Shown: positions 24,874-42,128 of the stretch, piece by piece
Layout of the letters: the number at the start of each line of letters is the position of its first letter
How positions within the stretch are numbered: position 1 is the stretch's first letter
DNA from: Clostridia bacterium
GTDB lineage: Bacteria; Bacillota; Clostridia; DUPQ01
Direction of reading: 5' to 3'
DNA length: 53,298 nt
Assembly (NCBI GenBank): GCA_016935835.1
Contig: JAFGQE010000150.1
Span: 1 to 53,298 of the forward strand
Notes under the pieces: model-generated
What the model was told of the DNA's origin: nothing
What the model saw: the letters and a program-made list of their open reading frames with translations, nothing else
Database searches by the model: none
Translations under genes and position numbers: made by a program

Positions 24874-25455
24874 ATGAAAAACAAAAAAATAATAATATTG
24901 ATGGCGTTGGCCATGTCGGCATTGTTCATGTTTACAGCCTGTACGACTGCAGCGGTTCCCGCGGCTTTGCCGGATGTTGAAAACGGCGGCGGTTCTCCGG
25001 CCGGAACGCAGGAGCCTGAAGCTTCTTCATTTACAGGAGATGCATATAATTTCACGCTGATGGATACCGACGGAAACACACATAGCCTTGAGGATTATCT
25101 GGGGAAAAAAGTATATCTGAAGTTCTGGGCTACATGGTGCCCTTCATGCCTGACGGGCCTGGCGGAGCTTGACATGCTTCCCGCGCTTGCCCAGGAGAAT
25201 GATATAGTGGTCCTTACAATTGTAGCTCCCGGATACAGCGGGGAAAAATCGTCTGAAAAGTTCGTGGAGTGGTTCAACGGAAGGGGACATGGTTTCACGG
25301 TTCTGCTTGATGAAGGCGGAAATTCGTTTTATGAGTATGGGATCAGGGCGGTGCCTTCGTCATATTTCATTGATACAAAGGGGAATCTGGCGGAAAGCAA
25401 GCTTGGGCATGTGTCCAATGAACAAATCATTGAAATATTCAATGGGATAAGGTAA
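24874..25455 (+). CDS. TlpA/ResA-like thiol-disulfide oxidoreductase lipoprotein
   Basis: Lipobox FTAC; GKKVYLKFWATWCPSC; AVPSSYFID with the thioredoxin cis-Pro. Confidence 0.9.
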   Translation: MKNKKIIILMALAMSALFMFTACTTAAVPAALPDVENGGGSPAGTQEPEASSFTGDAYNFTLMDTDGNTHSLEDYLGKKVYLKFWATWCPSCLTGLAELDMLPALAQENDIVVLTIVAPGYSGEKSSEKFVEWFNGRGHGFTVLLDEGGNSFYEYGIRAVPSSYFIDTKGNLAESKLGHVSNEQIIEIFNGIR

Positions 25456-25488
25456 GGCGGGAAAATGGACCGGCAAAGGAGGCTTATT

Positions 25489-27469: not shown

Positions 27470-29217
27470 GAAAGAGAAAGTCTCCCCGCATTGGTTCCCA
27501 GATATTCATATATTTCCTGCTTTCAACGGGATTGATATTCATCGCCAGCGGAATTCTCCTTTATTTCAATTTTGCAGGCCTGGTGGAAAGTGAAATACTA
27601 AAAGCCACCAGGATGGGCATAGACAGCAGCGGCAAGCAGCTTGAGCTGTACATAGGGCAGGTCAAGGCCATATCCTCAATACTTGCGGGCGACGCAAACA
27701 CATGCAGCTATTTTGAACACGGCCATGACGGCCATGTCGCCGATGAAAACGACAGGAGCGAGATCGAGGGGCTTATCTCCAACATCATGGCAGCCAATGA
27801 AGAGCTGGTTACCGTCGTCATGGTGGGATATGACGGAAAGATCCTGTCAAACGAGCCGGACCTTGGAATGGAGGTTTCGAAGGACATGATGGAGCAGCAA
27901 TGGTACAAGGATGCCATTGCCAACAGCATGCCGGTCCTGACTTCGGCGCGGATGCAGGAATTCACGATGGACAAGGACGAATGGGTTCTGTCGCTGAGCA
28001 GGGAAATTGTCGGCGAATGCGATGAAAACATAGGCGTGCTGCTGATTGATTTCAAATATGATGCCATTGAGGGCATATTGGACGAGCTGGATCTCGGCTC
28101 CAGGGGATACCCCTTCATATTGAACGGCAGGAATGAGGTGGTATACCATTTCGACGACACCTATTTCAGCGACGAGGAAAAAAGGTCTGAACTTGTAGAA
28201 ATTGCAAACATGGGCAGCGACTCGATTGGGGCGGGCAGGCTAATACACAGCTATCAGATCAAGGGAACGGACTGGATGCTCGTGGGAGTGGCATCGACTG
28301 ACGCGGTCAGGATGATGCGGCAGGACATGGTTGTCGTCCTGTGGATACTCGGGTCGGCGGTTTTCATGATTGCGCTGGGAAGCGGCGTCATATTCTCAAG
28401 AAGGGTCGCGTCTCCGCTGAAAAAGCTTGAAAAGGCGATGGAGGAAGTGGAATCGGGCAAGCTTGATCAGACGGTCGACATCAGGGGAAGCCTGGAGGCT
28501 GAAAGCATCGCGGGACACTATGTCTCCATGATGAAAAGGATACGAAAACTTCTCGATGAGATTCAACAAAAGGAAAGATATCTGAGGACAAGCGAACTCA
28601 ATACGCTGCAGAGCCAGATAAACCCGCATTTTTTGTACAATACGCTTGATACCATTCTGTGGGCGGCTGAATTCAGGGACAGCGGCAAGGTAATATCGCT
28701 GACCAAGGCGCTGGCCAGGTTCTTCAGGCTTTCACTTGGCGGGGGCGGGGAGCTTACCTCGGTTGCGGACGAGCTTGACCATGCGGAGCAATATCTTTTC
28801 ATTCAGAAACAAAGGTACGGGGATAAACTCAATTATTCATTTGAATCCGACGATGGGATCGGAGATATCAAAATACCGAGGCTGATTCTTCAGCCTATAG
28901 TTGAAAACGCCATTTATCACGGCATACGCACCCTGGATGACGGAGGAATGATTTCCGTCAGCGCACGCAGGCAGGACGACGGCTTGCTTTTCACCATAAG
29001 GGACAATGGACCGGGTTACGATTTGAACCCGGACAGGGCTGCCGGGGACAGGGAATCCGGTGGAAATGATTCCGTTGGCAAAACGGGCGTCGGGCAGGCC
29101 AACGTAGATAAAAGGATCAAACTTTATTATGGCGGTGGATATGGCCTGAGGATAGACAGCGCCCCGGGCAAAGGAACGACTGTATATATCAGGACAGGTC
29201 TTCAGGTCGACAGCTGA
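27466..29217 (+). CDS. Sensor histidine kinase (YesM/LytS type, Cache plus HAMP)
   Basis: LQSQINPHFLYNTL, LQPIVENAIYHG, DNGPG, GKGT; two TM helices; overlaps the regulator stop (ATGA). Confidence 0.92.
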   Translation: MRKRKSPRIGSQIFIYFLLSTGLIFIASGILLYFNFAGLVESEILKATRMGIDSSGKQLELYIGQVKAISSILAGDANTCSYFEHGHDGHVADENDRSEIEGLISNIMAANEELVTVVMVGYDGKILSNEPDLGMEVSKDMMEQQWYKDAIANSMPVLTSARMQEFTMDKDEWVLSLSREIVGECDENIGVLLIDFKYDAIEGILDELDLGSRGYPFILNGRNEVVYHFDDTYFSDEEKRSELVEIANMGSDSIGAGRLIHSYQIKGTDWMLVGVASTDAVRMMRQDMVVVLWILGSAVFMIALGSGVIFSRRVASPLKKLEKAMEEVESGKLDQTVDIRGSLEAESIAGHYVSMMKRIRKLLDEIQQKERYLRTSELNTLQSQINPHFLYNTLDTILWAAEFRDSGKVISLTKALARFFRLSLGGGGELTSVADELDHAEQYLFIQKQRYGDKLNYSFESDDGIGDIKIPRLILQPIVENAIYHGIRTLDDGGMISVSARRQDDGLLFTIRDNGPGYDLNPDRAAGDRESGGNDSVGKTGVGQANVDKRIKLYYGGGYGLRIDSAPGKGTTVYIRTGLQVDS

Positions 29218-31040
29218 CCCTGTCCCTGATTGTTCTGTTTGCGAAATGCGTCGTCCAGCATGGCGTGGAGGCTTCTCATTCTCATCGCATCGAATTTCAG
29301 CACCTTGCGGTCATATGTGTATATGCCGTTGGTTTCTATCTCAACATCGGACAGCTGGGTGTAGATCGTTCCGCACAGCCCGTATTCAATCAATGGCAGG
29401 ACCTGGCCTTTCAGCAGTTCCTCATAGGCATCCATCAGCATGCCGGTCGTAGGGAAATATTTATACCCGGAAGTGTCGTCATCCCTCCACAGGTTGTCAG
29501 TGAGTATGCAGTTATAGCCACCGTATTCGCTTATCAGATATGCCCTTTTATCGCAATCCGGCGGTCGTTTCAGCTCCTTGATATATGTATGCCTGCTCAG
29601 GAAATCGCCGCAGCCCTGGTCAATCCAGCCCGAAGCATGGTCGACCGCCCTGGAAGGGTCCGTTTCCCTGACTTTCTCATAAATCCTTTTTGAGTCGTAC
29701 TGGCCCCATGCCTCATTGAAAGGGCACCAGACTATTATTGCCGGGGAGTTGTGCAGGTGCGACAGCATCCCCCCGAGTTCATTCTCATAGCCTTCGCGTG
29801 AAGCGGGATCCGACCTCCATGCAAGGGAATGAGTCCTGCCGTTGTTGTCCCTGACAAGATGGCCGGGGAGCCTCGACAGCCTCACCCGCCGCCTGGTGGT
29901 CATGTCCCTTCCCCCGGAAACCATGTCCTGTATGACAAGGATTCCGATCCTGTCGGCATGGTAATACCAGCGGCGGGGCTCGATCTTGATATGTTTTCTT
30001 ATTGCATTGAAGCCAAGCTCCTTCATTCTGCGTATGTCGAATTCCATTGCGGCGTCGCAAGGCGGGGTCAACCCGCTTTCGGGCCAGTATCCCTGGTCAA
30101 GCGGTCCATTAAGGAATACTGGCGACCCGTTCAGCAGCAGCATATTCCTTCCGGAGCTTCCCTTTGCAAATGAAACCGAGCGGATTCCAAAGTACGAGGT
30201 CACCGAATCAATGGTATCCTGACCGGACACAAGGTCAATTTCCACATCATAGAGGAAAGGGTCGGCGGGGCTCCACAGCCTGGGGGATTCAAGGAGTATG
30301 TCAAACGGCTCGTTCGATTTGAACACGGCTGAGGCCGCCGGATGCCCTCCTTCGTATATTCGGGCGCGAACGTCCAGGCCTGATGCCGATGATACCTCGA
30401 TGCGAACTCCGTTGGCCCCGGAAAGGGGAGTCATGCGGAGGCCTTCCACATAATCCTTGGGAACGGTTTCCATCCATACCGTCTGCCAGATTCCGCTCGT
30501 AGGCGTGTACCATATGCCTGACGGATGAAGGCGCTGCTTACCGCGCTGCTGCCAGTGGGTGTCGGATGGATCCGTTACGGAAACAACCAGCACGTTGACG
30601 CCGGGCCTTGAAAGATCCGTTATATCGATTGAAAAGGGAAGGTAGCCTCCTTCATGAGAGCCTGCCATGGTTCCGTTTATAAAAATTTCACATTTCCAGT
30701 CGACGGCTTCGAAATTCAACAGAATGCGATTGGAGGATCCGGTTTCCGGGGCGGGAAAGGAGCGTCTGTAATGAAGCTTCCGGTCGGGCGGGAAGGGCTT
30801 TTCCACACCGCCCAGGGCTGTTTCGAATGAGAAAGGAACCAGGATGAAGCCGTCCGCCGTTTCGGGCATCGGCTCATCAATCCCCGTTACGGCGTATTCC
30901 CAGGGACCGTTCAGGCAAATCCAGTCCCGCCGGACCATCTGGGGCCTCGGGTATTCGCCCAGTGGACAGGTCCTGTCGATGGTTGCACCCCAGATTGTGC
31001 TGATGCCGGAATCCTTCCGTGTTTTTTGTTCTTTGGTCAT
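29202..31040 (-). CDS. Glycoside hydrolase family 2 (beta-galactosidase-like)
   Basis: EYPRPQM, LNFEAVDW, GIWQTVW, GPLDQGYWP, RKHIK, PFNEAWGQ, SEYGG, YTQLSDVE. Confidence 0.9.
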   Translation of the reverse strand: MTKEQKTRKDSGISTIWGATIDRTCPLGEYPRPQMVRRDWICLNGPWEYAVTGIDEPMPETADGFILVPFSFETALGGVEKPFPPDRKLHYRRSFPAPETGSSNRILLNFEAVDWKCEIFINGTMAGSHEGGYLPFSIDITDLSRPGVNVLVVSVTDPSDTHWQQRGKQRLHPSGIWYTPTSGIWQTVWMETVPKDYVEGLRMTPLSGANGVRIEVSSASGLDVRARIYEGGHPAASAVFKSNEPFDILLESPRLWSPADPFLYDVEIDLVSGQDTIDSVTSYFGIRSVSFAKGSSGRNMLLLNGSPVFLNGPLDQGYWPESGLTPPCDAAMEFDIRRMKELGFNAIRKHIKIEPRRWYYHADRIGILVIQDMVSGGRDMTTRRRVRLSRLPGHLVRDNNGRTHSLAWRSDPASREGYENELGGMLSHLHNSPAIIVWCPFNEAWGQYDSKRIYEKVRETDPSRAVDHASGWIDQGCGDFLSRHTYIKELKRPPDCDKRAYLISEYGGYNCILTDNLWRDDDTSGYKYFPTTGMLMDAYEELLKGQVLPLIEYGLCGTIYTQLSDVEIETNGIYTYDRKVLKFDAMRMRSLHAMLDDAFRKQNNQGQGQLST

Positions 31041-31186
31041 GTCAGGCACCCCGCTTATTATTTCCATGAAATTATATCATAATATATTATAATGCAGTTA
31101 TTCCTGACAGCCCCCGGGCTTTGGATCCGCATGAGCATCCGGGGAAATATGATATAATGTCCTGGAGCCGGGAGGCATGGGCTGAT

Positions 31187-32581
31187 ATGAAAAAATATAA
31201 AAGAATTCTGGATATTCTGGCAGGGGCGGCTTTATTCGCAACCATCGCCCTGATATTGCCTGATGGGTTCGCCGCGGAGGCGAAGATAGCCATGGGAATG
31301 ATAGCGATGATGGTTTACTGGTGGATAACCCGGCCGGTGCATTATGCAGTCACCGCATTGGTTCCTTTGGTGGTCAACTCAGTTTATCCAATGATTCCCA
31401 TGGCTGATCTGCTCGGGGAATATGCGGACCCTATAGTTTTGCTGATACTCGGGGCAAGCATCCTGACGGCCGCCTGGACCCTTCACGGGCTTGACAAGAG
31501 AATAGCGCTGAAATCCCTGACATGGATAGGAACATCGGTCAATAAGCAGCTGGCCGTTTGGTTTCTGCTCGCGGTTGGCATGAGTGCATTCCTGCCAAAC
31601 ATGGTTGTAGCCGCGGCGTTGTGCCCGGTGGCGTATGCGATGATGAAATACTCAGGCGGTTCGAATGACGGAAAAACATCAAATCTTTTGCTGCTTGCAA
31701 TAGTATGGGGCGCTGGAATCGGCGGAATCGGAACACCCATGGGCGGTGCGATGAACCTGGTTGTGATATCGAACATAGAAAAGCAAACGGGCAATGAGTT
31801 TCTTTACTGGGAATGGGTTGCGCGGATATTCCCGTTCCTGCTGGTGCTGTCGGCGGTTGTCCTTGCATATATTTTATTAATAAGGAAGGATACCCGTGAA
31901 CTTGAAGGGAGCAAGGAATATTTCAAAACACAGCTTCAGGCCGCGGGTCCATTGAGCAAGCCTGAGGCAGCTGTACTGCTTCTTTTTCTGTTTGCCGTTG
32001 CATTGTCGTTCACAAGGCCTTTTTACCAGGGCTTGTTTCCGGGTTTCACCCCGCCGTTCGCCTTTTTGTTGATGGGCCTTATGACATTCCTGATAAAACC
32101 CAGGGGACATGGCCGGCTGATGGACTGGAATTATACGGCGGCAAATATCAACTGGGGTCTTCTCATTCTTTTTGCGGGAGGGCTGGCAGCGGGCGGATTG
32201 ATAACCGGAACGGGAGCGGCCGAATCCATGGCAGTGATGTTAAATGACAACGGCTCTGCCGGAGTGATTGGTGCGGTCATGGTCATTGCGGCAGTAGGTA
32301 TGTTCCTTGCAAACGCTTCAAGCAATACTGCCGCGTGCGCGGTTCTGGTTCCCATGGTGATTACCATTGCGGTCGGAATGGGCCACGACCCGCTGCCATA
32401 TGTGTTCCTGACCGCCGCGGCATGCAACAGTGCATATGCGCTGCCGACGTCAATCAGGGCGGTTCCGGTCGGATACGGACTGGACACAGGCTTTATGTTC
32501 AGGAAGGGTATGATTGCCATTCTGATATCATATGCGGCCCTTGTTTTGTCGGGATACGCATATATATTGCTTTTGGCATAG
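31187..32581 (+). CDS. SLC13/DASS family anion (sulfate/dicarboxylate) transporter
   Basis: GIGGIGTPMGGAMN, INWGLLILFAGG, SSNTA motifs; many TM segments; extended -10 TGATATAAT near 31150. Confidence 0.85.
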   Translation: MKKYKRILDILAGAALFATIALILPDGFAAEAKIAMGMIAMMVYWWITRPVHYAVTALVPLVVNSVYPMIPMADLLGEYADPIVLLILGASILTAAWTLHGLDKRIALKSLTWIGTSVNKQLAVWFLLAVGMSAFLPNMVVAAALCPVAYAMMKYSGGSNDGKTSNLLLLAIVWGAGIGGIGTPMGGAMNLVVISNIEKQTGNEFLYWEWVARIFPFLLVLSAVVLAYILLIRKDTRELEGSKEYFKTQLQAAGPLSKPEAAVLLLFLFAVALSFTRPFYQGLFPGFTPPFAFLLMGLMTFLIKPRGHGRLMDWNYTAANINWGLLILFAGGLAAGGLITGTGAAESMAVMLNDNGSAGVIGAVMVIAAVGMFLANASSNTAACAVLVPMVITIAVGMGHDPLPYVFLTAAACNSAYALPTSIRAVPVGYGLDTGFMFRKGMIAILISYAALVLSGYAYILLLA

Positions 32582-32593
32582 GCGGTGAGTCTT

Positions 32594-32824
32594 ATGAAAG
32601 AAAATGCCAGGATGCTGGATTGTTTCGGGGACATGTGTCCCTTGCCCTTGCTCAGAATAGAGGCTGAAATTCCCAGGACCGGGAAAGGGGACAGCTTTGT
32701 GGTTGTCACTGACCACAGCTGCGTGCTTGAATCAATAAAAGACAAATACAAGGACAAGAACATAACGATGGAAATAGAGGAAGTTATGAACGGCGTATGG
32801 GAAATTACATTTACGAAGCTATGA
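32594..32824 (+). CDS. TusA/SirA/YeeD family sulfur carrier
   Basis: LDCFGDMCPLP (CPxP motif), GDSFVVVTDHSC, WEITF. Confidence 0.85.
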   Translation: MKENARMLDCFGDMCPLPLLRIEAEIPRTGKGDSFVVVTDHSCVLESIKDKYKDKNITMEIEEVMNGVWEITFTKL

Positions 32825-32870
32825 AAAGAGTATTCACAGGCCTTTGCCTGATATATATATGACGCTTGCC

Positions 32871-33770
32871 TCAGCAGAATGATTTCGTTCCTTTGCTTAT
32901 GAACCAGGATATGAATTCCTCGACCTGGCGCGAATGGCTTTTCTTAAACAGAAGTATCATCTCGAGGTCCATGTTGAAATCAGGTACCTTTATTTGCTTG
33001 AAATCCTTTTTGTACAGCTCCTCCTTCACGGAGATATACGGGAGAAATGCAAGCCCGTAATTCCTGGATATCATGATCTTGGCGCCCTCTATCCCCTCGA
33101 CCTCCATGTGGCAGTTGAGGTTGTCCCTGGCGTAACCGAGTTTCTTAAGGTTGTTCATAAGGATATCGTTGATATCATTCCTTCCTGTAAATGTTATTAT
33201 ACAGGCATCCAGGAGTTCTTCGATTGACAGGACGTCCGGGTTGGACGGAATGTTTTTTCCCGCCAGTACGATATTGTTTATTCCTGTCTTGATCGAAACC
33301 ACATCCTTGGGAAGCCGGAGGGGACCGGTGAAATATGAAAAGCCTATATCGCAGATATTATTGACGACATCCGTGGCGATATCCGTGGAAAGACGGGATT
33401 TCAATTCGTACTTGTGCGACGGAAACTGCTTGTTGGCGAGCATGAGGGTGCATGGGAGCGCATAATTGGCTATGGCGCTGCATGCTTCTATCTTGATCAG
33501 CTCCCCGACGCCGCCCTGTGTCTTGATTTCATCAAGCATCTCATCATAGGTGCGTATTATATTTTCAGCGAACTTATAGACTGTCTCGCCCGCAGGGGTC
33601 AGAACCACCCCTTTGTTGCTTCTTTCAAGCAGCTTGCAGGACATGTCCGCCTCCAGCTTGCTTATCTGCTGGCTCAGGGCGGATTGCGAGATATGGGCTT
33701 CACCCGCTATGCTGCTTATGCTGCCCGCGTTTGCAATCTTATAAAAGAATTTCAAAGATTCTATATTCAT
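32871..33770 (-). CDS. LysR family transcriptional regulator
   Basis: HISQSALSQQISKLE...LLERSNKGVVLTPAG HTH; about 300 aa; divergent from the yeeE operon. Confidence 0.93.
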   Translation of the reverse strand: MNIESLKFFYKIANAGSISSIAGEAHISQSALSQQISKLEADMSCKLLERSNKGVVLTPAGETVYKFAENIIRTYDEMLDEIKTQGGVGELIKIEACSAIANYALPCTLMLANKQFPSHKYELKSRLSTDIATDVVNNICDIGFSYFTGPLRLPKDVVSIKTGINNIVLAGKNIPSNPDVLSIEELLDACIITFTGRNDINDILMNNLKKLGYARDNLNCHMEVEGIEGAKIMISRNYGLAFLPYISVKEELYKKDFKQIKVPDFNMDLEMILLFKKSHSRQVEEFISWFISKGTKSFC

Positions 33771-33834
33771 ACCAGGCTCCGTTCGGCATTTTGTTGAGTG
33801 CGGCCGCAGGTGTAAATTATATCACAGCTCTGCC

Positions 33835-33869
33835 ATAAAAAAAACTTATACTGCATAAGCAAAACGGAT
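33835..33869. promoter_or_regulatory. Tandem LysR T-N11-A boxes
   Basis: ATAA-N7-TTAT (33835-33849) and ATAAGCAAAACGGAT (33855-33869) in the lysR/yeeE divergent region. Confidence 0.65.
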
Positions 33870-33948
33870 ATATCCATTTCCCGTGCATATGTTAAAATCG
33901 TTAAGGAATGTTAATTTATTAACAAAGTTTTGGAAAGGATGTGAAAAA

Positions 33949-34641
33949 GTGACTGAAGGAGTGGAAAGGAAATCCTCAAGGGCTTCGGCCGGGGGAGCCA
34001 AGCGAAAGAAAAAGAACCAGCTTCCGATTGCGGTTGTCATTTTCGTCGTCATAGCAGGAATAGGCGTATGGCTTGGCTTCAGGGGTGAGAACCTTCTTTT
34101 GTACTGGCTGCTGGGCCTGGCATTCGGGTTTGTCCTGCAAAGGTCAAGATTTTGTTTCACGGCTTCCATGAGGGATCCGTATCTGACGAAAAGCACATCG
34201 ATAACCAGGGCGGTGCTGATTGCGTTCGCGTTGACAAGCATCGGGTTCACCGCGATAAAATACGGTTATTTCGCGAACGGTCTTGCCATACCCGGGCAAA
34301 GCTTCGTCGCCACGATAAGCATAGCGACGGCCGTAGGCGCAATAATGTTCGGAATAGGCATGGTCATAGCGGGCGGATGCGCATCAGGAACGCTCATGAG
34401 GGTCGGCGAGGGTTTTTGGATGCAGGTTATATCCCTTTTCTTCTTTATCGTGGGATCCCTCTGGGGAGCGCATGATTTCGGATGGTGGAAAAGAACTTTC
34501 ATGCTGAAAGGATTCGAGGTGTTTTTACCCGATTACCTTGGATGGCTGGGCGGACTGGGCGCCAACCTGCTTATAATAGCGGTCATTTATGTCATAGCGC
34601 ATAAATGGGAGAAAAAGCACAGCAACGAGCTGTCGCACTAA
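33949..34641 (+). CDS. YeeE/YedE thiosulfate/sulfur transporter, N-terminal half protein
   Basis: GFVLQRSRFCF and FGIGMVIAGGCASG motifs; GTG start after AAAGGA. Confidence 0.9.
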   Translation: MTEGVERKSSRASAGGAKRKKKNQLPIAVVIFVVIAGIGVWLGFRGENLLLYWLLGLAFGFVLQRSRFCFTASMRDPYLTKSTSITRAVLIAFALTSIGFTAIKYGYFANGLAIPGQSFVATISIATAVGAIMFGIGMVIAGGCASGTLMRVGEGFWMQVISLFFFIVGSLWGAHDFGWWKRTFMLKGFEVFLPDYLGWLGGLGANLLIIAVIYVIAHKWEKKHSNELSH

Positions 34642-34663
34642 AAAATAATTGGAGGAAATTGAA

Positions 34664-34894
34664 ATGAGTAAAGAAGTTGTATTGGATTGTCTGGGAGAGG
34701 CTTGCCCGATCCCCTTGGTCAAGAGCGAGAAAGCCATTGAGAAAATGGCTGTCGGCGACGTGCTTGTAGTACAGGTTGACCACAGTTGCGCGATGAAGAA
34801 TGTTCCCGAGTGGGCCAGGAAACAAGGATATGAAGTTGAAGTCGAGGAAGTCGACGACGGCGAATGGGAAATCATAATAGAAAAGACAAAATGA
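34664..34894 (+). CDS. TusA/SirA/YeeD family sulfur carrier
   Basis: LDCLGEACPIP, GDVLVVQVDHSC, NVPEWA..GY, WEIIIEK. Confidence 0.9.
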   Translation: MSKEVVLDCLGEACPIPLVKSEKAIEKMAVGDVLVVQVDHSCAMKNVPEWARKQGYEVEVEEVDDGEWEIIIEKTK

Positions 34895-34928
34895 CAAACC
34901 GGTAAAATTCTGCAGGAGGTGAAAGGCC

Positions 34929-35477
34929 TTGAAGGCATTTTTCGAAAAAATCAAAGAGAACGAATTTTACAAGCTTTGGTTCAAGGATGCGCTGCCGTAT
35001 GTAACCGGTGCGGTTCTGCTGTCGGTTTTCCAGATCGTGACGTTTGCGACGACAGGCAACCCATGGGGAGTTTCCGGGGTTTTCGCGGAGTGGGGCGCAT
35101 GGATCTTTGAATTGTTCGGCGGCTCGGTTGACAAATGGTATTATTTCAGTTCGCCTGGGGCACAGGCGACGCTGAATGCCGGAATTCTGAACCATGCCCC
35201 GACATGGAGAAACCTGGGGATAATCGCCGGCGCATTGTTCGCCGCCATGATGGCCTCCGGTTTCAAGATCAAGAAAATCAAGTCCTACAAGCAGGTGGTC
35301 GCCGCGGTCCTTGGAGGTTTGCTCATGGGCTATGGAGCAAGGATTGCGTTTGGCTGCAACATCGGCGCGCTTTACAGCGGGATAGCGTCGCTGTCGCTTT
35401 CAGGATGGGTTTTCGCGGCATTCATGTTCGTGGGAGCGATCATCGGAAGCAAGCTGCTTGTAAAATATTTTATGTAA
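34929..35477 (+). CDS. YeeE/YedE transporter, C-terminal half protein
   Basis: PWGV, GGLLMGYGARIAFGCNIGA motifs; TTG start with AGGAGG RBS. Confidence 0.9.
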   Translation: MKAFFEKIKENEFYKLWFKDALPYVTGAVLLSVFQIVTFATTGNPWGVSGVFAEWGAWIFELFGGSVDKWYYFSSPGAQATLNAGILNHAPTWRNLGIIAGALFAAMMASGFKIKKIKSYKQVVAAVLGGLLMGYGARIAFGCNIGALYSGIASLSLSGWVFAAFMFVGAIIGSKLLVKYFM

Positions 35478-35492
35478 GAAGGAAGTATTGAA

Positions 35493-36713
35493 ATGGATAG
35501 AGAAAAAATCGTGGAAAAGTATGACGTCGTTATTATCGGCGGAGGAGCTTCAGGGCTGACCGCAGGGATATACTGCGGACGGGCGAGGCTGAACACCCTT
35601 GTGCTCGAGGAATCGCTCGTAGGAGGAATTGCCACGAATACCTGGGAGATTGAGAATTATCCCGGATTTCCCGAAAGTATCTCGGGCACCGGGCTTATGA
35701 ACCTGTTCTACCAGCAGGCAAAGAAATTCGGCGTCAAGTTCAAGCTGACGAATGTCAAGAATGTTGATTTTTCAGGCGATGTCAAGATAGTCGAGACGTT
35801 CAGGAACAGATATGAGGCAAAGGCCGTAATAATCTGCAACGGAAGCAAACCAAGGCTTACCAATGCTGAAAATGAACAGCAGTACATCGGCAAGGGCATA
35901 GCCTTCTGTGCGACATGCGATGCCGCCTCATGCACGGGGGAGGAAGTCCTGGTTATCGGGTCAGGCGATGCGGCCATCGAGGAGGGAATGTTCCTTACCA
36001 AGTTCGCAAGCAAGGTCAAGGTATCCATCATTCATGACGAGGGAATCATGGACTGCAATGCGATTGCAAAATCGGCGGCCCTTGCAAACCCGAAGATGGA
36101 GTTCCTGCACAACACGGTTGTCGAGAGATTCGAGGGCGGGGAAGAGATGAACAGGGTAATCCTGAAAAATCTAAAGACCGGCGCACTTGTTCCGGTCGAC
36201 TGCTTCAGATGTTTCCTTTTCATCGGTTATATACCTAACACATCCCTTTACAAAGGCATTATCGATATGAGCGGGAAGGGCTATATACTTACCAATGAGA
36301 ACATGGAAACCAACGTTCACGGCGTGTTCGCGGCGGGCGACGTCAGGGAGAAATTCCTGCGCCAGGTTGCGACTTGCGTCGGCGATGCCGCGACGGCGGG
36401 TGTAATGGCGGAGAAGTACATAGCCGAATCCGAGATATTCGAGAATATAATTATGAACGGCAACGGCATCGCGTATATATATGATGCGTCGGATGCGGAA
36501 CACAGGGAGTTCCTTGAGGAGATAGAGAAGCTTGAGGCCGAGTATGACGAATACTGCTGCCATAAGGTGGACACATATAAATCCCAGGGACTTGCCAAGA
36601 GACTGTGCAAGACCGGGCACTGTCCTTCCGTCGTAATCATCAAGAATGGAAAAATCGTCAAGGTGATTGACGAGGAGCACCTTAGCAAAAAGAACATAGA
36701 GGAAAATCTGTGA
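35493..36713 (+). CDS. trxB: Thioredoxin reductase-like flavoprotein with C-terminal degenerate thioredoxin-like domain
   Basis: IIGGGASG, IENYPGF, CATCD, GVFAAGDVR, RQVATCVGD; about 95-aa extension ending PSVVIIKNGK. Confidence 0.85.
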   Translation: MDREKIVEKYDVVIIGGGASGLTAGIYCGRARLNTLVLEESLVGGIATNTWEIENYPGFPESISGTGLMNLFYQQAKKFGVKFKLTNVKNVDFSGDVKIVETFRNRYEAKAVIICNGSKPRLTNAENEQQYIGKGIAFCATCDAASCTGEEVLVIGSGDAAIEEGMFLTKFASKVKVSIIHDEGIMDCNAIAKSAALANPKMEFLHNTVVERFEGGEEMNRVILKNLKTGALVPVDCFRCFLFIGYIPNTSLYKGIIDMSGKGYILTNENMETNVHGVFAAGDVREKFLRQVATCVGDAATAGVMAEKYIAESEIFENIIMNGNGIAYIYDASDAEHREFLEEIEKLEAEYDEYCCHKVDTYKSQGLAKRLCKTGHCPSVVIIKNGKIVKVIDEEHLSKKNIEENL

Positions 36714-36736
36714 TTTTTATGAAAGGAAGGGAGCAA

Positions 36737-37633
36737 GTGAAAAAAACTGTTTTATTGATTACGCTGGTCCTGATGATCACAGTCATGCTGTCCGGATGCG
36801 GAAGCTTTGATTTCGCGGAAACCGGCGGATATATCGTAACTCCCAAGGAAGCCCTTGAAATGGCCGGCAACGGTGCAATACTCATTGATGCGCAATCGGC
36901 GGCGGACTACGGTCTCGCCCACATTGAAGGCGCGGTCAATATACCGATGTCGGAACTGGTGGTCAACGAACCTTATGCGAACATGCTTGCCGGTTCATCA
37001 CAGATCGAGCAATGCCTGGGTGCAGCGGGAATAACTGAAAATGACATGCTGCTGGTTTATGACAATAGTTCGAACATGGCGGCTGCAAGGGTGCAGTGGA
37101 CCCTCAACATGTACGGCAATTTCAATGTTCGCGTCGTAAGCGGCGGAATAAACGCATTGAAGGATGCAGGGGCGAAGACCACCATGGCGGCCGTGGAATT
37201 GCCTGAGGCCGAATACAAGGCCGGCGACACGCAGAAGAACCTTATAGTTACGCTTGATTATATCAAGTCGCAGCTCAACATGCCGGACGAAAACACGGTT
37301 ATCATCGATACAAGGAGCTTCGAGGAGTACAGGGCCGGCACGATACCGGGATCGGTGCACATAGAGTATATATGGAATAATTACGCCACGGGCGAGTACA
37401 AGAGCGTCCGCGACATACAGATTACCTATCTTGACAAAGGCATCATGCCGGAGATGAAGCTGATCCTTTTCTGCAAGACATCGGTAAGGGCGGCGCAGAC
37501 CTATACGGCATTGAAAAACGCAGGCTACAGGGATGTAAGGATTTATGACGGGGCATGGCTCGAATACGAGGACGTTGAAAATCCTGCGCCTCCGTCTGAA
37601 GATACGCCTCCTGAACCACAGGATGCGTCATAA
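36737..37633 (+). CDS. Tandem-domain rhodanese/sulfurtransferase lipoprotein
   Basis: Lipobox LSGC; AHIEGAVNI, IDTRS..EY..GTIPGS, catalytic FCKTSVRA, YDGAWLEY. Confidence 0.9.
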   Translation: MKKTVLLITLVLMITVMLSGCGSFDFAETGGYIVTPKEALEMAGNGAILIDAQSAADYGLAHIEGAVNIPMSELVVNEPYANMLAGSSQIEQCLGAAGITENDMLLVYDNSSNMAAARVQWTLNMYGNFNVRVVSGGINALKDAGAKTTMAAVELPEAEYKAGDTQKNLIVTLDYIKSQLNMPDENTVIIDTRSFEEYRAGTIPGSVHIEYIWNNYATGEYKSVRDIQITYLDKGIMPEMKLILFCKTSVRAAQTYTALKNAGYRDVRIYDGAWLEYEDVENPAPPSEDTPPEPQDAS

Positions 37634-37648
37634 GGAAAGGAAATATTT

Positions 37649-39241
37649 ATGAAGAAACTATTAGTTATTTTAATTGCGCTCGTGATGATTTTCACGGCTG
37701 GATGCGCCTCAACGGGGTCCGTGGAGGATGCCGCGACAAAGTATTTCGCGGAATATCCCGGCAACCGCATAGTTGAATGGGCGGATGTGTTTGCGAAGAT
37801 GGATGCGGGCGACGAGCCTTTCATCCTGAGCATAAGGTCCGCTGAGGATTATGCAAAGGCCCATATCAAGGGGGCTTACAACGCCGCATGGGGCGCGGAC
37901 CTCGCAGGCAAGGTTGCGATGCTTCCCACCGACAAGCCCGTCTATGTCTACTGTTATTCGGGACAGACCGCAGGCCAGGCGATCGCCCTGATGAATATGC
38001 TTGGAATCGAGGCATATTCAATTAAATCAGGCTTCAACTACGGTGCGATGAAAATCAGCGGCTATGAGGCTTATGTCGATACCTCCGCAGTAACCCTTCC
38101 AGATGCCGGGGCAAAGATGGACAAGAAGATCCTTGAGTTTGTCGAGGGATACTTCAGCACGGTTGCAGACAACGCCAACAACATCATTGCATCCGCTGAT
38201 GCGAAACCCCTAATTGAAGCAGGCGATGTTCTGGTTGTCGACATCAGAAGTGCAGCCGACTACGAAAAGGCCCACATAGACGGGGCTGTCAGCCTCCCGT
38301 TCGGAGCCGGAATGCAGGGGAAATTTGAAAATCTTCCAATGGATAAAAAACTTATCGTTGCCTGTTACTCCGGGCAGACAGCAGGACAGGCCGTTGCGAT
38401 TATGAAAGCCCTTGGTTACAATGCGGTATCCCTGAGATTTGGAATGGGGGACAACGGCTGGGCGGGATTCGTCAAGTCAGCGGCCGCGAACAACTATTTC
38501 GCTGATTATCCGGGGAACAGGATAGTTGCATGGGAAGATCTTTTCGCAAAGATGGACGCAGGCGAGGAACCATTCATACTCAGCATAAGGTCGGCTGAGG
38601 ACTATGGCAAGGGACACATCAAAACCGCAATGCTTGCCGCCTGGGGACAGGACCTTGCGGACAAGGTCTCCATGCTTCCTACGGACGAAACGGTATATGT
38701 GTACTGCTACTCCGGCCAGACGGCGGGACAGGCAGTGGCCATGTTCAATATGCTCGGAATAGATGCAGTATCGGTAAAAGCAGGCTTCAATTACGGTGCG
38801 ATGAAGATAGAGGGCTATGAAGCCTATGTAACTACCGATGCAACGGAACTTGCCGATGCGGGTGCGGATTTTGACGCGGTCATGCTCAATGAAGCGGTCA
38901 AATACTTCGCCGGAATAGCTGACAATGCAAGTTATAAGATCGGCTGGGACGACACGCTTGCAGCCGTGGAGGCAGGCGAGGCAACCGTAGTTGACATCAG
39001 GAGAGCCGAGGACTTCGCGGCGGGCCATATCCAGGGAGCCGTAAATGTTCCTTTCGGCGAAGGTATGCAGGAAAGCTTCGGTACTCTTCCTTCAGGCAAA
39101 CTGATAATCGCATGCTACACGGGACAGACGGCCGGTCAGGCTACGACGGTTCTCAGGATGCTTGGCAAGGATGCCGTGTCGCTTCATTTCGGAATGACGG
39201 CGGGCTGGGTGGCCAACGGATATCCTGTTGTAACGGACTGA
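37649..39241 (+). CDS. Four-domain rhodanese lipoprotein (internal duplication)
   Basis: Lipobox TAGC; four rhodanese domains with CYSGQT (three) and CYTGQT (one); two ~251-aa halves. Confidence 0.88.
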   Translation: MKKLLVILIALVMIFTAGCASTGSVEDAATKYFAEYPGNRIVEWADVFAKMDAGDEPFILSIRSAEDYAKAHIKGAYNAAWGADLAGKVAMLPTDKPVYVYCYSGQTAGQAIALMNMLGIEAYSIKSGFNYGAMKISGYEAYVDTSAVTLPDAGAKMDKKILEFVEGYFSTVADNANNIIASADAKPLIEAGDVLVVDIRSAADYEKAHIDGAVSLPFGAGMQGKFENLPMDKKLIVACYSGQTAGQAVAIMKALGYNAVSLRFGMGDNGWAGFVKSAAANNYFADYPGNRIVAWEDLFAKMDAGEEPFILSIRSAEDYGKGHIKTAMLAAWGQDLADKVSMLPTDETVYVYCYSGQTAGQAVAMFNMLGIDAVSVKAGFNYGAMKIEGYEAYVTTDATELADAGADFDAVMLNEAVKYFAGIADNASYKIGWDDTLAAVEAGEATVVDIRRAEDFAAGHIQGAVNVPFGEGMQESFGTLPSGKLIIACYTGQTAGQATTVLRMLGKDAVSLHFGMTAGWVANGYPVVTD

Positions 39242-39257
39242 TTTAAATTATTAATCC

Positions 39258-39288
39258 AAAGCCCCCGGATATGCCGGGGGCTTTTTTT
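39258..39288 (+). terminator. Rho-independent terminator ending the sulfur operon
   Basis: AAAGCCCCCGG-ATATG-CCGGGGGCTTTTTTT. Confidence 0.9.
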
Positions 39289-39306
39289 AAATCATATTAT
39301 GTAATA

Positions 39307-39412
39307 GGGAAATCATCCCTGGGATAAAAGGTCGAAAATGGGGAAATCATCCCAGGTATGAAAATCATCCCAGGGATAACTTTCCGAAAATGGGAAATAA
39401 ACCAAGGAATGA
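39307..39412. repeat. Tandem ~52-bp duplication containing four ATCCCWGGGAT-like palindromes
   Basis: AAATCATCCCTGGGATAA, AAATCATCCCAGGTATGA, AAATCATCCCAGGGATAA, AAATAAACCAAGGAATGA, with the linker CGAAAATGGG present twice. Confidence 0.8.
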
Positions 39413-39448
39413 ACTGCCGGTATGGGTTTTTCTTGATATCGGCCTGCG

Positions 39449-41011
39449 ATGATTTATAATTGGAGCATGGAAAAGCTTATGCGCAGGATAAAATCCATTG
39501 ACACGGCCTACTGGTATATATCGGCCTACTTTCTGGTCAACCTGATTTTTTTGACCCGGTTTCCTTTCATGCATTCCGATGAATCCTGGCTGTCCGGACT
39601 TTCCCGTTCAATGCAATCCGGGGGATTGGGCACGACCGAGACCTTCTTCGACCTTTTTCCGAGGCATCCCCATGCAATAAAGATACTGTTTCATATGGTA
39701 CAGATCGGATTTGAAAGTATCCTCGGCTACAGTCTTTTCACTTTCAGGCTTATATCGCTTATCGCTGGCATCGCCGTACTGGTGCTTTTCTATAAATCAG
39801 CCCGACTATTACTGAAGACCCGGATGGATGCCTTCCTTGCGACCGCGGCGCTTTCACTTTGCATCCAGTTCATATATGCGTCGCACTTCGCCCGGCAGGA
39901 AATAATCATTCTCGCCGGCATGACCGGAGTACTGTACTTCATAATGAGCAAAAGCATGGAGTGGGGCTATTGGAAGGATATTGCCGCCGCACTGGCTACA
40001 GGGGTTTTCGCAGGGGTTCATCCCAACAGCCTTATCATAGCGCTGGCAGCGGGCTCCCTGTATCTTTACTATATTGTCAGGAAGCAGGGCATGCGGATAT
40101 CAAACCTGCTTGTTTATATTTTTTCCACAGCCCTGACAGCGGGAATTTTCATAGGCATCAGCTTCATGTTCGACGGAAACTTCATATCGAATTATCTGTC
40201 ATACGGAAGCGGACTTGGTGTTTCCGATTCCCTGGCGGCCAAATCCGGGGGCATTCTGAGTTATTATCAAAAACTTTTCAATGGCGTCAGCGGAACTTAT
40301 TATACCCCCGGCATCCGTGCGGCCCTTATTTTGTTCGCGGTATCGCTGGCGGGGGGAACCTTTGCATTTTTCCGGGACAAAAACCTGGCAAGGCTTTTAA
40401 TGCCTATTGCAGCCGTCAACATCGGATTCATTTTGATAGGCAGGTTCTCACAACCCGGGGTGGTGCTGATATTTCCGCTTTGCATCCTATTGCTTTTTTG
40501 CCTTATCGGGAAAATCGCAGGGAGCAAGTCATGGATGGCCGCGGTCGCGGTATGCCTTTGCCTTGCGGTAAATTCAGCCATCGGAATAATTCCATATTCG
40601 GGCAATGAATACAAGGAGTACCTTGATGAAATAAAATCCACTGTTCCGGGCGACTCCGTGGTTCTTGCGAATCTCAATGCGGAATACGCATTCGGGCCGG
40701 GCGGACTGTACGACTACAGGAATCTCGCGTATCTCGGCGACGCCGGCCTGGATTTCGCAGGATACATTGAATCAAGGAATATAGAATATATAATTTATCC
40801 CGCGGAAATGGATTTCATATATGAGCGCAGGCCGGTATGGAACGTGGTATATGGAAACCTGTATCCATATTATGGGCAGATGCAGGAGTTCCTTGATCAA
40901 AGATGCAGGCTGATATATGAATTCAACTCGCCGTATGCTATGAGAATCGTGCGCTTTTCGTACGAACGGGAGTGGCCGGTCAGGATATATGAGGTGATTG
41001 CGGATGAATAA
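39449..41011 (+). CDS. ArnT/PMT-like (GT-C fold) membrane glycosyltransferase
   Basis: First TM followed by HSDESW (DE motif), RLIS, FARQE, many TM segments; start codon uncertain. Confidence 0.78.
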   Translation: MIYNWSMEKLMRRIKSIDTAYWYISAYFLVNLIFLTRFPFMHSDESWLSGLSRSMQSGGLGTTETFFDLFPRHPHAIKILFHMVQIGFESILGYSLFTFRLISLIAGIAVLVLFYKSARLLLKTRMDAFLATAALSLCIQFIYASHFARQEIIILAGMTGVLYFIMSKSMEWGYWKDIAAALATGVFAGVHPNSLIIALAAGSLYLYYIVRKQGMRISNLLVYIFSTALTAGIFIGISFMFDGNFISNYLSYGSGLGVSDSLAAKSGGILSYYQKLFNGVSGTYYTPGIRAALILFAVSLAGGTFAFFRDKNLARLLMPIAAVNIGFILIGRFSQPGVVLIFPLCILLLFCLIGKIAGSKSWMAAVAVCLCLAVNSAIGIIPYSGNEYKEYLDEIKSTVPGDSVVLANLNAEYAFGPGGLYDYRNLAYLGDAGLDFAGYIESRNIEYIIYPAEMDFIYERRPVWNVVYGNLYPYYGQMQEFLDQRCRLIYEFNSPYAMRIVRFSYEREWPVRIYEVIADE

Positions 41012-42128
41012 GATAAAATTCAACAAACCGTTTTATGACGTCGGGGAGATCGAAAACCTCAGGAAATATTTGCTTGGGGGAGTGGATTTCAGGCAGACCG
41101 TTGCCGGCCATCTGAAAAGAGCCACCGGCGCTGTGAAGGTTATTCCGACCGCCGGCGCCGCGGCGGCTATGGATGCTTATTTCGCCGCGATGAATTTCCC
41201 GTCGGGGGGAGAGGTGGCCATGCCCTCATTTACTTTTCCCTCCGCGGCCAATTCAGTGGTCAACGCAGGCCTGAGACCGGTTTTCACAGACATCGACCAA
41301 AGGACACTCGTCATGGACCAAGGGTGTCTTAAGGAGGGTTTATCTAAAAGGACCGTGTGCATAATGCCTGTTCACTATGGAGGCGCCTCGATGGATATGG
41401 ACTCCCTGATGGAAATCTCGCTCGAATACGGCATTCCGGTTTTCGAGGATGCGGCGCTTTCATACGGGGCTTTTTACAAGGGACGGCATCTTGGAACCAT
41501 CGGGGATGCGGGGGCGCTGAGTTTTCATGCCACCAAGAACATATCGGGCGACGGAGGCGGGGCGTTGCTTCTAAATGGCATGAATGTTGATGATGCATTT
41601 GAAGAGATACTTGCAGACGGCACGGACAGGCCCGCGTTCAATCGAGGCGAGGTAGCTGCATATACATGGCGGCGGGCGGGCAGGGGCGGCGCCATGACCG
41701 GCCTGACCGCGGCAGTGCTGGCGGCGCAGCTTGAAAAAGAGGACGACATCCGCCGCAGGCGAAAAATCGTGTGGGATGCATATTATTCGGGTTTGAAGAA
41801 ACTTGCCGGATCAGGCGTATTTGAGCTTCCGTCCATACCTCCGTACAACACCAACAATTATCATGTTTTCCATCTGGGATTCAAAGACAGGAAAGCGCGG
41901 GACGTCGTCGCCGGGGAACTGGCGGCGGCCGGGGTCGAGGCTTTCATACATTATATGCCGCTGCACTCATCCTCAATGGGAGCCAGCCTTGGCTATCGCC
42001 GCGGCGACCTTCCGGTCACCGAGTCGGCCGCATCCGGCCTTCTTCGCCTTCCCATGCACGCATGGCTTGACTCCGGCGACGTTGATGGAATCTGTAAACT
42101 CATTGCACGGGCGGTGGCGCATGTTTGA
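41004..42128 (+). CDS. DegT/DnrJ family nucleotide-sugar aminotransferase (WecE/RffA-like)
   Basis: MPSFTFPS, PVHYGG, EDAA, LSFHATKN (PLP lysine), HYMPLHSS, LLRLP. Confidence 0.9.
   Translation: MNKIKFNKPFYDVGEIENLRKYLLGGVDFRQTVAGHLKRATGAVKVIPTAGAAAAMDAYFAAMNFPSGGEVAMPSFTFPSAANSVVNAGLRPVFTDIDQRTLVMDQGCLKEGLSKRTVCIMPVHYGGASMDMDSLMEISLEYGIPVFEDAALSYGAFYKGRHLGTIGDAGALSFHATKNISGDGGGALLLNGMNVDDAFEEILADGTDRPAFNRGEVAAYTWRRAGRGGAMTGLTAAVLAAQLEKEDDIRRRRKIVWDAYYSGLKKLAGSGVFELPSIPPYNTNNYHVFHLGFKDRKARDVVAGELAAAGVEAFIHYMPLHSSSMGASLGYRRGDLPVTESAASGLLRLPMHAWLDSGDVDGICKLIARAVAHV

Follow-up and report, generated by a model that had tools for sequence, protein, structure and literature searches.

The 53,298-nucleotide stretch of Clostridia bacterium DNA analysed here (contig JAFGQE010000150.1; below, the window) carries a locus whose gene content suggests a machine, widespread in anaerobic bacteria, that would harvest reactive sulfur at the cell surface and reduce it to sulfide. 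At its centre is a six-gene operon divergent from a lysR gene; it encodes, in order, the N-terminal half of a YeeE-type transporter, a TusA-like sulfur carrier (TusA2), the C-terminal half of the transporter, a thioredoxin reductase-like (TrxR-like) flavoprotein and two rhodanese lipoproteins, R2 and R4. A DASS/CitMHS permease gene and a second tusA (tusA1) are directed at the 3′ end of lysR and complete the region 31187–39288. An initial annotation made from the sequence had named these nine genes, and open reading frames (ORFs), Pfam and NCBIfam place all nine where it had put them. What it overlooked is the adjoining glycosylation module, the most constant partner of the rhodaneses: its four genes (39449–44123), for a membrane glycosyltransferase of GT-C fold, a WecE-like sugar aminotransferase, a GT2 glycosyltransferase and an ATP-grasp ligase, belong to the same conserved neighbourhood, and the boundary drawn at 39288 does not hold. 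What has been observed is the identity of the genes, the folds and conserved residues of their products, and the way in which the genes are conserved together or alternate.

From these we infer a route whose individual chemical steps are all proposals, as are the direction in which sulfur flows, the reductant and the modification of an R2 arm. Its backbone is on balance probable: R4 and R2 would capture sulfane sulfur at the surface, YeeE would import it, TusA2 would take it over and the flavoprotein would reduce it. The two rhodaneses, outside the membrane, would strip thiosulfate or polysulfide of its sulfane sulfur, with sulfite left outside; the split YeeE channel, with three functional cysteines, would bring the sulfur in, TusA2 would receive it, and the TrxR-like flavoprotein would reduce the TusA-bound sulfur to H2S. 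The sulfide could feed CysK and/or act as a fermentation electron sink, and LysR together with TusA1 may sense sulfane sulfur. The C-terminal arm of R2 would be a SoxY-like carrier, with a cysteine of its own (GGCGG) in a few relatives and a D-x-S end in the window and most relatives, and the four glycosylation proteins would attach an N-acylated 4-amino-6-deoxyhexose to the D-x-S arm or to the surrounding envelope.

Is such a machine of more than local interest? The souring of oil and gas wells by fermentative anaerobes, Halanaerobium among them, comes from their conversion of thiosulfate to sulfide, and numerous Clostridia of gut and sediment reduce sulfur compounds with no respiratory reductase known; the picture of sulfur handling at the surface has so far been vague. 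The locus offers a testable list of parts: surface rhodaneses, one with an arm, a glycosylation module, a split YeeE, TusA, two interchangeable reductases and a cysteine-bearing LysR. The parts are of known kinds (YeeE/TsuA–TsuB, rhodaneses, TrxR-type flavoproteins, GT-C/GT2, LysR), most of them scoring under curated equivalog cut-offs. No literature linking the rhodanese pair to YeeE, a GT-C module or a carrier arm was found in a search that mostly did not extend to subscription journals, and among the matches listed none mentioned an ATP-grasp protein, and a glycosyltransferase was mentioned only in an unrelated paper on Bacteroides fragilis BmoR (PMC6158253).

Conservation of the neighbourhood across genomes

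Linkage was tested from three anchors, the TrxR-like protein, the ATP-grasp ligase and an alignment of GT-C orthologs. The first gave 77 loci with 8 kb flanks, many on short contigs, and from them 71 sequences of the C-terminal YeeE half, 66 of the N-terminal half, 57 of LysR, 55 of TusA1 and 84 of TusA2, some loci holding two tusA2 genes; the ATP-grasp ligase was present in 49, GT2 in 43, GT-C in 30 and the DegT-type aminotransferase in 24. The second gave 10 loci, and in all nine that were informative LysR, both YeeE halves, GT-C, R2 and R4 were present. The third began from 382 GT-C relatives among species genomes and yielded 77 new loci, 43 of them at least 20 kb long. Here R4 was found in 65 of the 77, the ATP-grasp ligase and GT2 in 63 each, R2 in 61, LysR in 55, DegT and the C-terminal YeeE half in 52 each, the N-terminal half in 45, TusA1 and TusA2 in 31 each, the TrxR-like protein in 27 and the DASS permease in 10. 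With the 43 long loci the picture sharpens to R4 in 43, ATP-grasp and GT2 in 42 each, LysR and a YeeE of any form in 39 each, R2 in 36 and DegT in 35.

The initial annotation had listed a lack of co-conservation in other genomes among the results that would refute its proposal, and on this count the proposal is sustained, with R4 in 43 and R2 in 36 of the 43 long loci. The membership that it gave the cassette fares unevenly: the rhodaneses, YeeE and LysR belong to it, and the TrxR-like flavoprotein and TusA2 are not constant. GT-C and R2/R4 are direct, mostly divergent neighbours in Halanaerobiales, Clostridia, Christensenellales, Anaerolineales and metagenome-assembled genomes (MAGs) of Spirochaetes. 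Carriers include Christensenellaceae MAGs with the gene order of the window, Halanaerobium, Dethiosulfatibacter, Fusibacter, Clostridium, Geosporobacter and Desulfitobacterium, as well as MAGs labelled Anaerolineales and Spirochaetes. Since gene order and strands vary between lineages, the linkage is more than inherited synteny.

The surface rhodaneses, the R2 arm and the glycosylation module

R2 and R4 both open with a signal peptide and a lipobox (ending MLSGC and FTAGC, respectively), and both are rhodaneses by Pfam family PF00581 and the presence of a catalytic cysteine. Invariant in 24 R2 sequences are the lipobox Cys30, the catalytic Cys255 and Arg260. R4 strings together four single rhodanese domains with a CY(S/T)GQTA active-site loop in every one; a loose pattern for that loop finds two loops in 53, four in 28 and one in 5 of 86 orthologs. 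By a similarly loose expression 54 of 79 complete R2 ORFs and 63 of 86 complete R4 ORFs have a lipobox, and a further 5 and 20, respectively, have a hydrophobic N-terminus without one.

At its other extremity the R2 of the window ends in QDAS, after a C-terminal arm rich in proline, serine and threonine; there is no cysteine in the arm and it lacks the GGCGG end of SoxY type. A D-x-S end is found in 77 of the 79 R2 orthologs whose 3′ end is intact (QDAS 24, QDGS 16, QDNS 14, SDGS 9, GDAS 6 and others), with a median of 8 proline, serine or threonine residues in the last 22. One exception is a frameshifted fragment. The motif is also absent from a stand-alone secreted rhodanese of H. congolense, the second R2-like gene of strain DSM 11287, which has neither the arm nor the neighbourhood. 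The best 120 database homologs of R2 end in D-x-S in 104 cases, in N-x-S in 6, in GGCGG in 9 and in GGGGC in 1, and the ten cysteine-bearing ends come after a flexible proline-rich linker. When homologs are thinned to representatives at 50% identity, 14 of the 150 listed end in D-x-S and one has a cysteine arm, the D-x-S end being confined to the best-scoring proteins of about 300 residues. Two other high-scoring R2-like representatives (P0123 and P0125) end in EEPGGG and AAPGG, glycine-rich and free of cysteine and serine; they may be a third type of arm or truncated gene models.

A C-terminal GGCGG is described, in the passages available of PMC6067878 and PMC5336275, as the sulfur-binding swinging arm of SoxY, and among the literature matches listed the motif occurred in the context of LbpA and SoxY only. 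With SoxY the ten close R2 homologs share the GGCGG or GGGGC end after a flexible linker, an extracytoplasmic location and thiosulfate chemistry. They differ in that the arm is fused to a rhodanese and not to a SoxY fold and that the context, in anaerobes, is reductive or assimilatory instead of oxidative; the R2 of the window, moreover, ends in QDAS without a cysteine.

What, if anything, stands in for the cysteine? The cysteine-arm loci that could be retrieved are those of four Mariniplasma MAGs, with LysR, the N-terminal YeeE half, tusA2, the C-terminal YeeE half, the TrxR-like gene, R2 ending in GGCGG and R4, and without glycosylation genes; only one of the four (L188) has full 10 kb flanks. 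In these four genomes, the completeness of which is not established, there was no GT-C ortholog (a profile gave two 28-bit matches in one of them), and a genome-wide search for the ATP-grasp ligase gave no match. Counted by locus, the D-x-S end goes with GT-C in 78 cases and is without it in one, and GT-C accompanies the cysteine arm in none of four. In the single D-x-S locus without GT-C the contig ends just past R4, and GT-C is on a second contig of the same isolate (L107). The simplest account, suggested by this distribution, is that the R2 arm is a carrier whose D-x-S forms would need the glycosylation module. Nature here alternates between a GGCGG arm and a D-x-S arm with glycosylation genes, a ready basis for a clean genetic experiment.

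The GT-C protein, a membrane protein of 520 residues, matches no family in Pfam or NCBIfam. Its nearest ESM Atlas clusters are PMT_2/PMT (score 1.00, 229 of 256 features), and its AF2 model (pLDDT 89.2, pTM 0.90) has the GT-C fold: Foldseek ranks GT-C enzymes alone at the top, with 37 matches at E <= 0.001 and TMq 0.41–0.60, including AglB, STT3, ALG12, ArnT (5F15), PglB, Emb, DPY19 and Pmt4. The motif HSDE.W, with D44 and E45, is invariant in 18 sequences and is a candidate for the acidic motif that GT-C enzymes have in the first outer loop, and a profile of the alignment gave no match among PDB sequences. The WecE-like aminotransferase scores 321 against the NF008687 cut-off of 375, its best PDB match being 4PIW, a dTDP-4-amino-4,6-dideoxygalactose transaminase (220 bits). 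GT2 scores 106 against 529 for NF007986, undecaprenyl-phosphate Ara4FN transferase. The relatives of the ATP-grasp ligase with solved structures are all distant (PurD at 36.6 bits, L-amino acid ligases at about 25), too much so to reveal its substrate. The module of this genome has no RmlB ortholog beside it; genes of the epimerase/dehydratase family, only 28–29% identical, are elsewhere. The set of sugar 4-aminotransferase, ArnC-like GT2 and GT-C is common to the ArnB/ArnC/ArnT system and to Gram-positive glycosylation by GT2 and GT-C, from which the module of the window differs in scoring under the family cut-offs, in having an ATP-grasp ligase added, and in the rhodanese lipoproteins that, in place of lipid A or teichoic acid genes, are its constant neighbours.

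That the GT-C module modifies the R2 arm is a tentative proposal. Its competitor, also possible but rather doubtful, is that the glycosylation genes decorate the envelope generally, for instance teichoic acids or many lipoproteins, and are kept near by co-regulation or a shared need, the D-x-S end then docking R4 or YeeE, say. Pairs of GT2 and GT-C are indeed common in envelope glycosylation, the GT2 resembles ArnC, the GT-C fold matches take in ArnT and Emb, whose substrates are lipids and glycans, and the genomes without the module all come from one genus. This account does not readily explain why GT-C and R2/R4 are direct neighbours across many lineages despite rearrangements, nor why the type of arm co-varies with the module, and the top fold matches of GT-C are protein-glycosylating oligosaccharyltransferases. 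Returning to modification of the arm, there is a bolder version, which is improbable as it stands: the C-terminal serine of R2 would receive an N-acylated, perhaps cysteinyl, 4-amino-6-deoxyhexose that itself carries sulfane sulfur to YeeE. The WecE-like aminotransferase, the ATP-grasp ligase and GT2 would build the group on a lipid carrier and GT-C would attach it outside the cell, where the glycan-borne group would do the job of the cysteine in the GGCGG-ended relatives and SoxY. If true, a glycan-borne thiol would be a new kind of carrier group and the arm a sugar-based swinging arm in sulfur metabolism, of a kind not met in the literature searched; it would amount to cysteine-aminosugar chemistry like that of mycothiol and bacillithiol, fixed onto a protein.

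Proposed import, hand-over and reduction

Both YeeE halves, of about 230 and 182 residues, pass the family model PF04143 (102 and 122 bits, cut-off 27). The N-terminal half aligns to residues 7–129 of the S. thermophila YeeE structure 6LEO, keeping QRSRFCF and AGGCASG, and the C-terminal half to residues 221–319, keeping GCNIG, so that together they retain the equivalents of Cys22, Cys91 and Cys293. The two cysteines of the N-terminal half are conserved in 66 and 67 of 67 orthologs and that of the C-terminal half in 72 of 72. The TsuA models are far off (NF041049, 70.7 and 33.9 against 645; NF052577, 73.6 and 53.9 against 400), and the transporter is two genes instead of the single polypeptide of TsuA. 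Both TusA proteins have the TusA fold with the CP.P cysteine, which is present in 85 of 85 TusA2 and 56 of 56 TusA1 sequences; against the cut-off of 147.5 for NF041048 (TsuB/YeeD) they score 50 and 20.6, respectively. TusA typically has a single cysteine. Here the counts are 83 of 85 for C14 and 85 of 85 for C19 and C47 in TusA2, and 54 of 56 for C13 and 56 of 56 for C18 and C46 in TusA1, both proteins having a third invariant cysteine, in a DHSC motif, beside the pair of DC.G..CP.P. Mean column identity of TusA2 is 75% over 23 orthologs that include distant taxa.

With TsuA/TsuB of E. coli and S. thermophila (6LEO, 8J4C) the locus thus has in common PF04143 and PF01206, the three transporter cysteines, the TusA CP.P cysteine and an adjoining TusA-like gene. 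Unlike TsuA, its transporter is split in two genes around a tusA and scores far under the TsuA/TsuB cut-offs, its TusA has three conserved cysteines, and it couples a dedicated flavoprotein, LysR and surface rhodaneses. A two-gene YeeE is also known from PmpAB of Serratia and from YedE1E2, the zero-valent sulfur importer of Cupriavidus, with one essential cysteine per half (PMC11582611 and PMC10812762, in the passages available). Those halves are described there as about 130 residues with four helices and mostly proteobacterial, whereas the longer halves of the window hold all three cysteines of the full-length protein; the partners of PmpAB and YedE1E2 are PDO or ArsR-type regulators, those of the window a TrxR-like protein and LysR.

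The initial annotation called the flavoprotein an atypical TrxB, and aptly: it falls short of the TIGR01292 cut-off (294 against 343.45 bits), keeps CATC, has the NADPH arginine motif replaced and has an extra C-terminal domain. TIGR03143 is missed too (315 against 687.65). CATC is conserved in 77 of 77 sequences, Cys188 in 76 and Cys240 in 73, the tail cysteines in only 4–5 of the 77. Its best Foldseek match is the thioredoxin reductase 2Q7V (E 4e-37, TM 0.89 normalised to the target), and the added domain, residues 325–405 of the AF2 model (pLDDT 87.1), is a thioredoxin fold without CxxC, beta-alpha-beta-alpha-beta-beta-alpha in order. The arginines of HRRxxxR in thioredoxin reductase contact the 2′-phosphate of NADPH. 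Opposite HRRDTLR of 2Q7V stands HDEGIMD, of which H181, D182, E183 and G184 are invariant in 26 sequences, and, because the NADPH arginines are replaced, the enzyme may favour NADH, a reading taken from this single motif. Two ordinary trxB genes, past the TIGR01292 cut-off at 402 and 349.5 bits, are also in the genome.

Relevant to its function is the enzyme that takes its place elsewhere. The TrxR-like gene is in 19 of the 43 long GT-C-anchored loci and a fusion of CoA-disulfide reductase (CoADR) with rhodanese in 15; one or other is in 33 and both are in 1. The fusion scores 510 bits to CoADR-RHD of Bacillus anthracis (3ICR), 452 to 3NTA and 429 to the CoA-persulfide reductase 8A56. We take 3NTA to be the NADH-dependent persulfide reductase of Shewanella loihica; its PDB title is only ‘FAD-dependent pyridine nucleotide-disulphide oxidoreductase’. 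The fusion, like the TrxR-like protein, is a disulfide reductase of flavoprotein type accompanied by a sulfur-carrier domain, albeit of another flavoprotein subfamily and with a fused rhodanese instead of a separate TusA, and where it occurs YeeE is usually full-length and tusA2 absent. This is the pattern expected if the TrxR-like protein with TusA2, and CoADR with its fused rhodanese, both reduce carrier-bound sulfane sulfur. In Clostridium MAGs (L099, L101, L103–L106), at about 2100–5300 of their loci, a split YeeE pair without tusA2 and the TrxR-like gene adjoins, back to back, a full-length YeeE and the CoADR-rhodanese fusion; some genomes, then, have two adjacent YeeE systems.

The outside-to-inside relay proposed in the initial annotation draws strength from the GGCGG arm of some R2 homologs and from this alternation of reductases; the covalent passage of sulfur along the YeeE cysteines and the release of sulfide are steps that we still infer. 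In favour of a covalent relay, and on its direction, the split YedE1E2 sped zero-valent sulfur uptake in E. coli, not export, with both conserved cysteines needed, and the full-length YedE3 did not (PMC10812762, in the part available). Could the chain nonetheless run the other way, as a DsbD-like outward relay from NAD(P)H through flavoprotein, TusA and YeeE cysteines to the surface rhodaneses, by which external polysulfide or reactive sulfur would be reduced or detoxified without import? The cysteines of the parts do line up in a chain that leads from a reductase in the cytoplasm to proteins at the surface, and a set of CcdA, redoxin and MsrAB genes in the window indicates that extracytoplasmic thiol chemistry occurs in the organism. 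We judge it very improbable, in that known proteins of the YeeE family import, the cluster has no thioredoxin-like surface partner, and alternation with a soluble CoADR-rhodanese of persulfide-reductase type fits reduction in the cytoplasm.

A number of points weigh against surface capture followed by reduction inside. By the loose expression, 20 of 79 R2 and 3 of 86 R4 ORFs have no signal pattern, and an R4-type protein of H. congolense has a signal-like N-terminus without the lipobox cysteine. The contrast between cysteine arm and glycosylation module comes from one genus, in four MAGs, and it is a fair rival that Mariniplasma may be without glycosylation genes for another, envelope-related, reason, its order being wall-less. 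The TrxR-like gene and TusA2, as seen above, are each in fewer than half of the 77 GT-C-anchored loci, and the genome has a CoADR-rhodanese homolog elsewhere (contig C3:897–2552, 43% identical to that of L099), from which it follows that the alternation holds per locus, not per genome. A YeeE–TusA–TrxR cassette occurs in Erysipelothrix and Entomospira (L028, L044, L062) without rhodaneses or glycosylation genes within 8 kb, meaning that the modules are separable. In Halanaerobium, the identifier of the R2/R4 pair in a published proteome table is ambiguous (see below), and the pair may or may not be among the three rhodaneses that rise with thiosulfate. Finally, the YeeE of known structure is described as passing thiosulfate whole, by way of hydrogen bonds to its cysteines and not by a covalent relay (PMC11582611, in the passages available).

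Transport of the intact ion makes plain thiosulfate import possible, and with it ordinary assimilatory uptake of TsuA/TsuB type: YeeE would import the ion, TusA2 decompose it and the flavoprotein regenerate TusA2, the rhodaneses and glycosylation genes being loose helpers without a carrier arm. The YeeE halves and TusA2 do match TsuA/TsuB models, though under cut-offs; the cysteines of the transporter are retained; uptake by YeeE is described as requiring YeeD (same source); the genome has cysK and this YeeE alone; and the cassette stands alone in the two genera just mentioned. This is nevertheless unlikely, as it leaves unexplained the near-constant rhodanese pair beside GT-C, the D-x-S and GGCGG ends and the alternation with an enzyme of persulfide-reductase type, and as thiosulfate imported whole would leave sulfite inside. 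No sulfite reductase domain (NIR_SIR) was found in this 90.6%-complete genome, and leaving sulfite outside, as the surface rhodaneses would, should therefore suit the organism.

Regulator, host and surroundings

The LysR protein has its best NCBIfam match in NF040786 (144 bits, cut-off 250), and two cysteines, C107 and C299, are invariant in all 58 sequences. C299 is the last residue, an unusual place for an invariant cysteine in a LysR protein. The pair suggests thiol-based sensing, through a persulfide or a disulfide. In between the R4 terminator and the GT-C gene, at 39311–39377, are three copies of ATCATCCCWGGKAT, with a core palindrome ATCCCWGGGAT. Allowing up to 2 mismatches there are 4 matches in the window where 0.71 would be expected by chance. 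As the LysR site, sought as a motif shared by the three promoter regions, this was dropped: there are 14 exact copies in the genome, often paired, and inspection by eye of stretches upstream in 10 related loci showed none. The sequence could be a short dispersed repeat or a binding site for some other regulator.

The selenium-linked best matches of several proteins, NF033796 (YedE/FdhT) at about 104 for both YeeE halves, NF040786 (LysR_Sec_metab) for LysR and TIGR03527 (YedF) at 50, raise the thought of selenium uptake or handling of the YedE/YedF/LysR_Se kind, which the initial annotation had offered as an alternative. Those scores are far under the cut-offs (350, 250 and 110), and YedE and LysR_Se are reported, in the passages available of PMC5322559, only from SelD-containing organisms. 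No selD over cut-off was found in the 90.6%-complete genome. In a class-wide sample of 399 genomes scored, the TrxR-like ortholog was in 15, and 2 of the 14 other carriers have a selD over cut-off. Since selD is found neither here nor in 12 of those 14, selenium handling is disfavoured, to the point of being extremely improbable.

The genome, 2.34 Mb in 180 contigs, has in this locus its only YeeE and its only two TusA genes. Does the physiology of carriers tell sink from assimilation? A model in which rhodaneses and an anaerobic sulfite reductase make sulfide from thiosulfate exists for Halanaerobium. RdlA (Ravot 2005) reportedly belongs with it. As described in the available part of PMC5497025, sulfide production is thiosulfate-dependent, and three rhodaneses and AsrA are more abundant with thiosulfate. 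These are likewise fermenters, and R2/R4 orthologs are, by near-identity, among the queries of that study, in the main text of which ‘lipoprotein’ and ‘signal peptide’ have 0 occurrences; surface location, YeeE, GT-C and a carrier arm go unmentioned in the portion available, and the host of the window differs in the sulfite reductase domain not found there. Its supplement lists metagenome proteins whose first residues are the three N-terminal peptides of the R2/R4 pair from H. congolense (L179); to the WG8 rhodanese queries 11115 and 11116 these show identities of 99.67% and 100%. Of Tables S2 and S3, S2 ties the same two sequences to identifiers 11115/11116 and the other has them beside 10591/10592, a mismatch for which displaced rows in the published file may be responsible. 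Four Fusibacter loci (L018, L022, L030, L067) carry the cassette, and Fusibacter is described as reducing thiosulfate and S0, said to relieve hydrogen inhibition and not to conserve energy (PMC9751042, in the part available). The electron sink suggested by the initial annotation fits this published physiology of Halanaerobium and Fusibacter, and assimilation may be served instead or besides.

The DASS-tusA1 pair had been counted as part of the system. The permease passes the Pfam models CitMHS and Na_sulph_symp, and scores 149.8 against the cut-off of 198.6 for the DASS subfamily model TIGR00785. In the long GT-C-anchored loci it occurs 8 times, an ABC transporter with NMT1/SsuA-type binding protein 21 times and the two together never, by which DASS is a lineage-specific stand-in and not a core part; tusA1, where found, adjoins lysR. 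The features of the locus are collected in Table 1. The permease ORF is open from 31121, with GGGAGG preceding the ATG at 31187. The hairpin that follows R4 is the strongest terminator-like site of the region and bears out the terminator that had been placed there, closing the operon after the rhodanese pair.

Table 1. Features of the sulfur locus and the adjoining glycosylation module, in window coordinates
Feature	Position	Strand	Evidence
DASS/CitMHS-type anion permease	31187-32581	+	PF03600 145 bits, PF00939 122 bits
TusA-like protein 1 (tusA1)	32585-32824	+	PF01206 43 bits
LysR-type regulator	32871-33770	-	PF00126 and PF03466
YeeE/TsuA N-terminal half	33949-34641 (ORF open from 33883)	+	PF04143 positions 1-155
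TusA-like protein 2 (tusA2), between the YeeE halves	34649-34894	+	PF01206 91 bits
YeeE/TsuA C-terminal half	34929-35477	+	PF04143 positions 163-310
TrxR-like flavoprotein disulfide reductase	35493-36713	+	TIGR01292 294 bits, CATC
R2, tandem-rhodanese lipoprotein	36710-37633	+	PF00581, two stretches, 114 bits
R4, four-domain rhodanese lipoprotein	37649-39241	+	PF00581, four stretches, 176 bits
Terminator-like hairpin after R4	39258-39284	+	11 pairs, 8 of them G-C, then a T run
GT-C-fold membrane glycosyltransferase (ArnT/PMT_2/oligosaccharyltransferase-like)	39449-41011	+	ESM Atlas neighbours, Foldseek
DegT/WecE-like sugar 4-aminotransferase	40998-42128	+	PF01041 223 bits
GT2 glycosyltransferase, ArnC-like	42124-42867 (ORF open from 41803)	+	PF00535
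ATP-grasp ligase with L-amino-acid-ligase C-terminal domain	42864-44123	+	PF13535, PF18603, PF01071

Elsewhere in the window, at 23428–26649, a membrane protein of CcdA/DsbD type, a 178-residue protein without a family, an AhpC/TSA-redoxin and an MsrA-MsrB fusion are encoded in a row, a set that looks like extracytoplasmic repair of methionine sulfoxide. GH2, GH31 and heparinase II/III-like genes flank the cluster (29202–31067 and 44453–48695), and the host looks like a degrader of polysaccharides. No RNA data set is listed as matching 33800–41000; the best-matching DNA data set for the window is a sediment metagenome.

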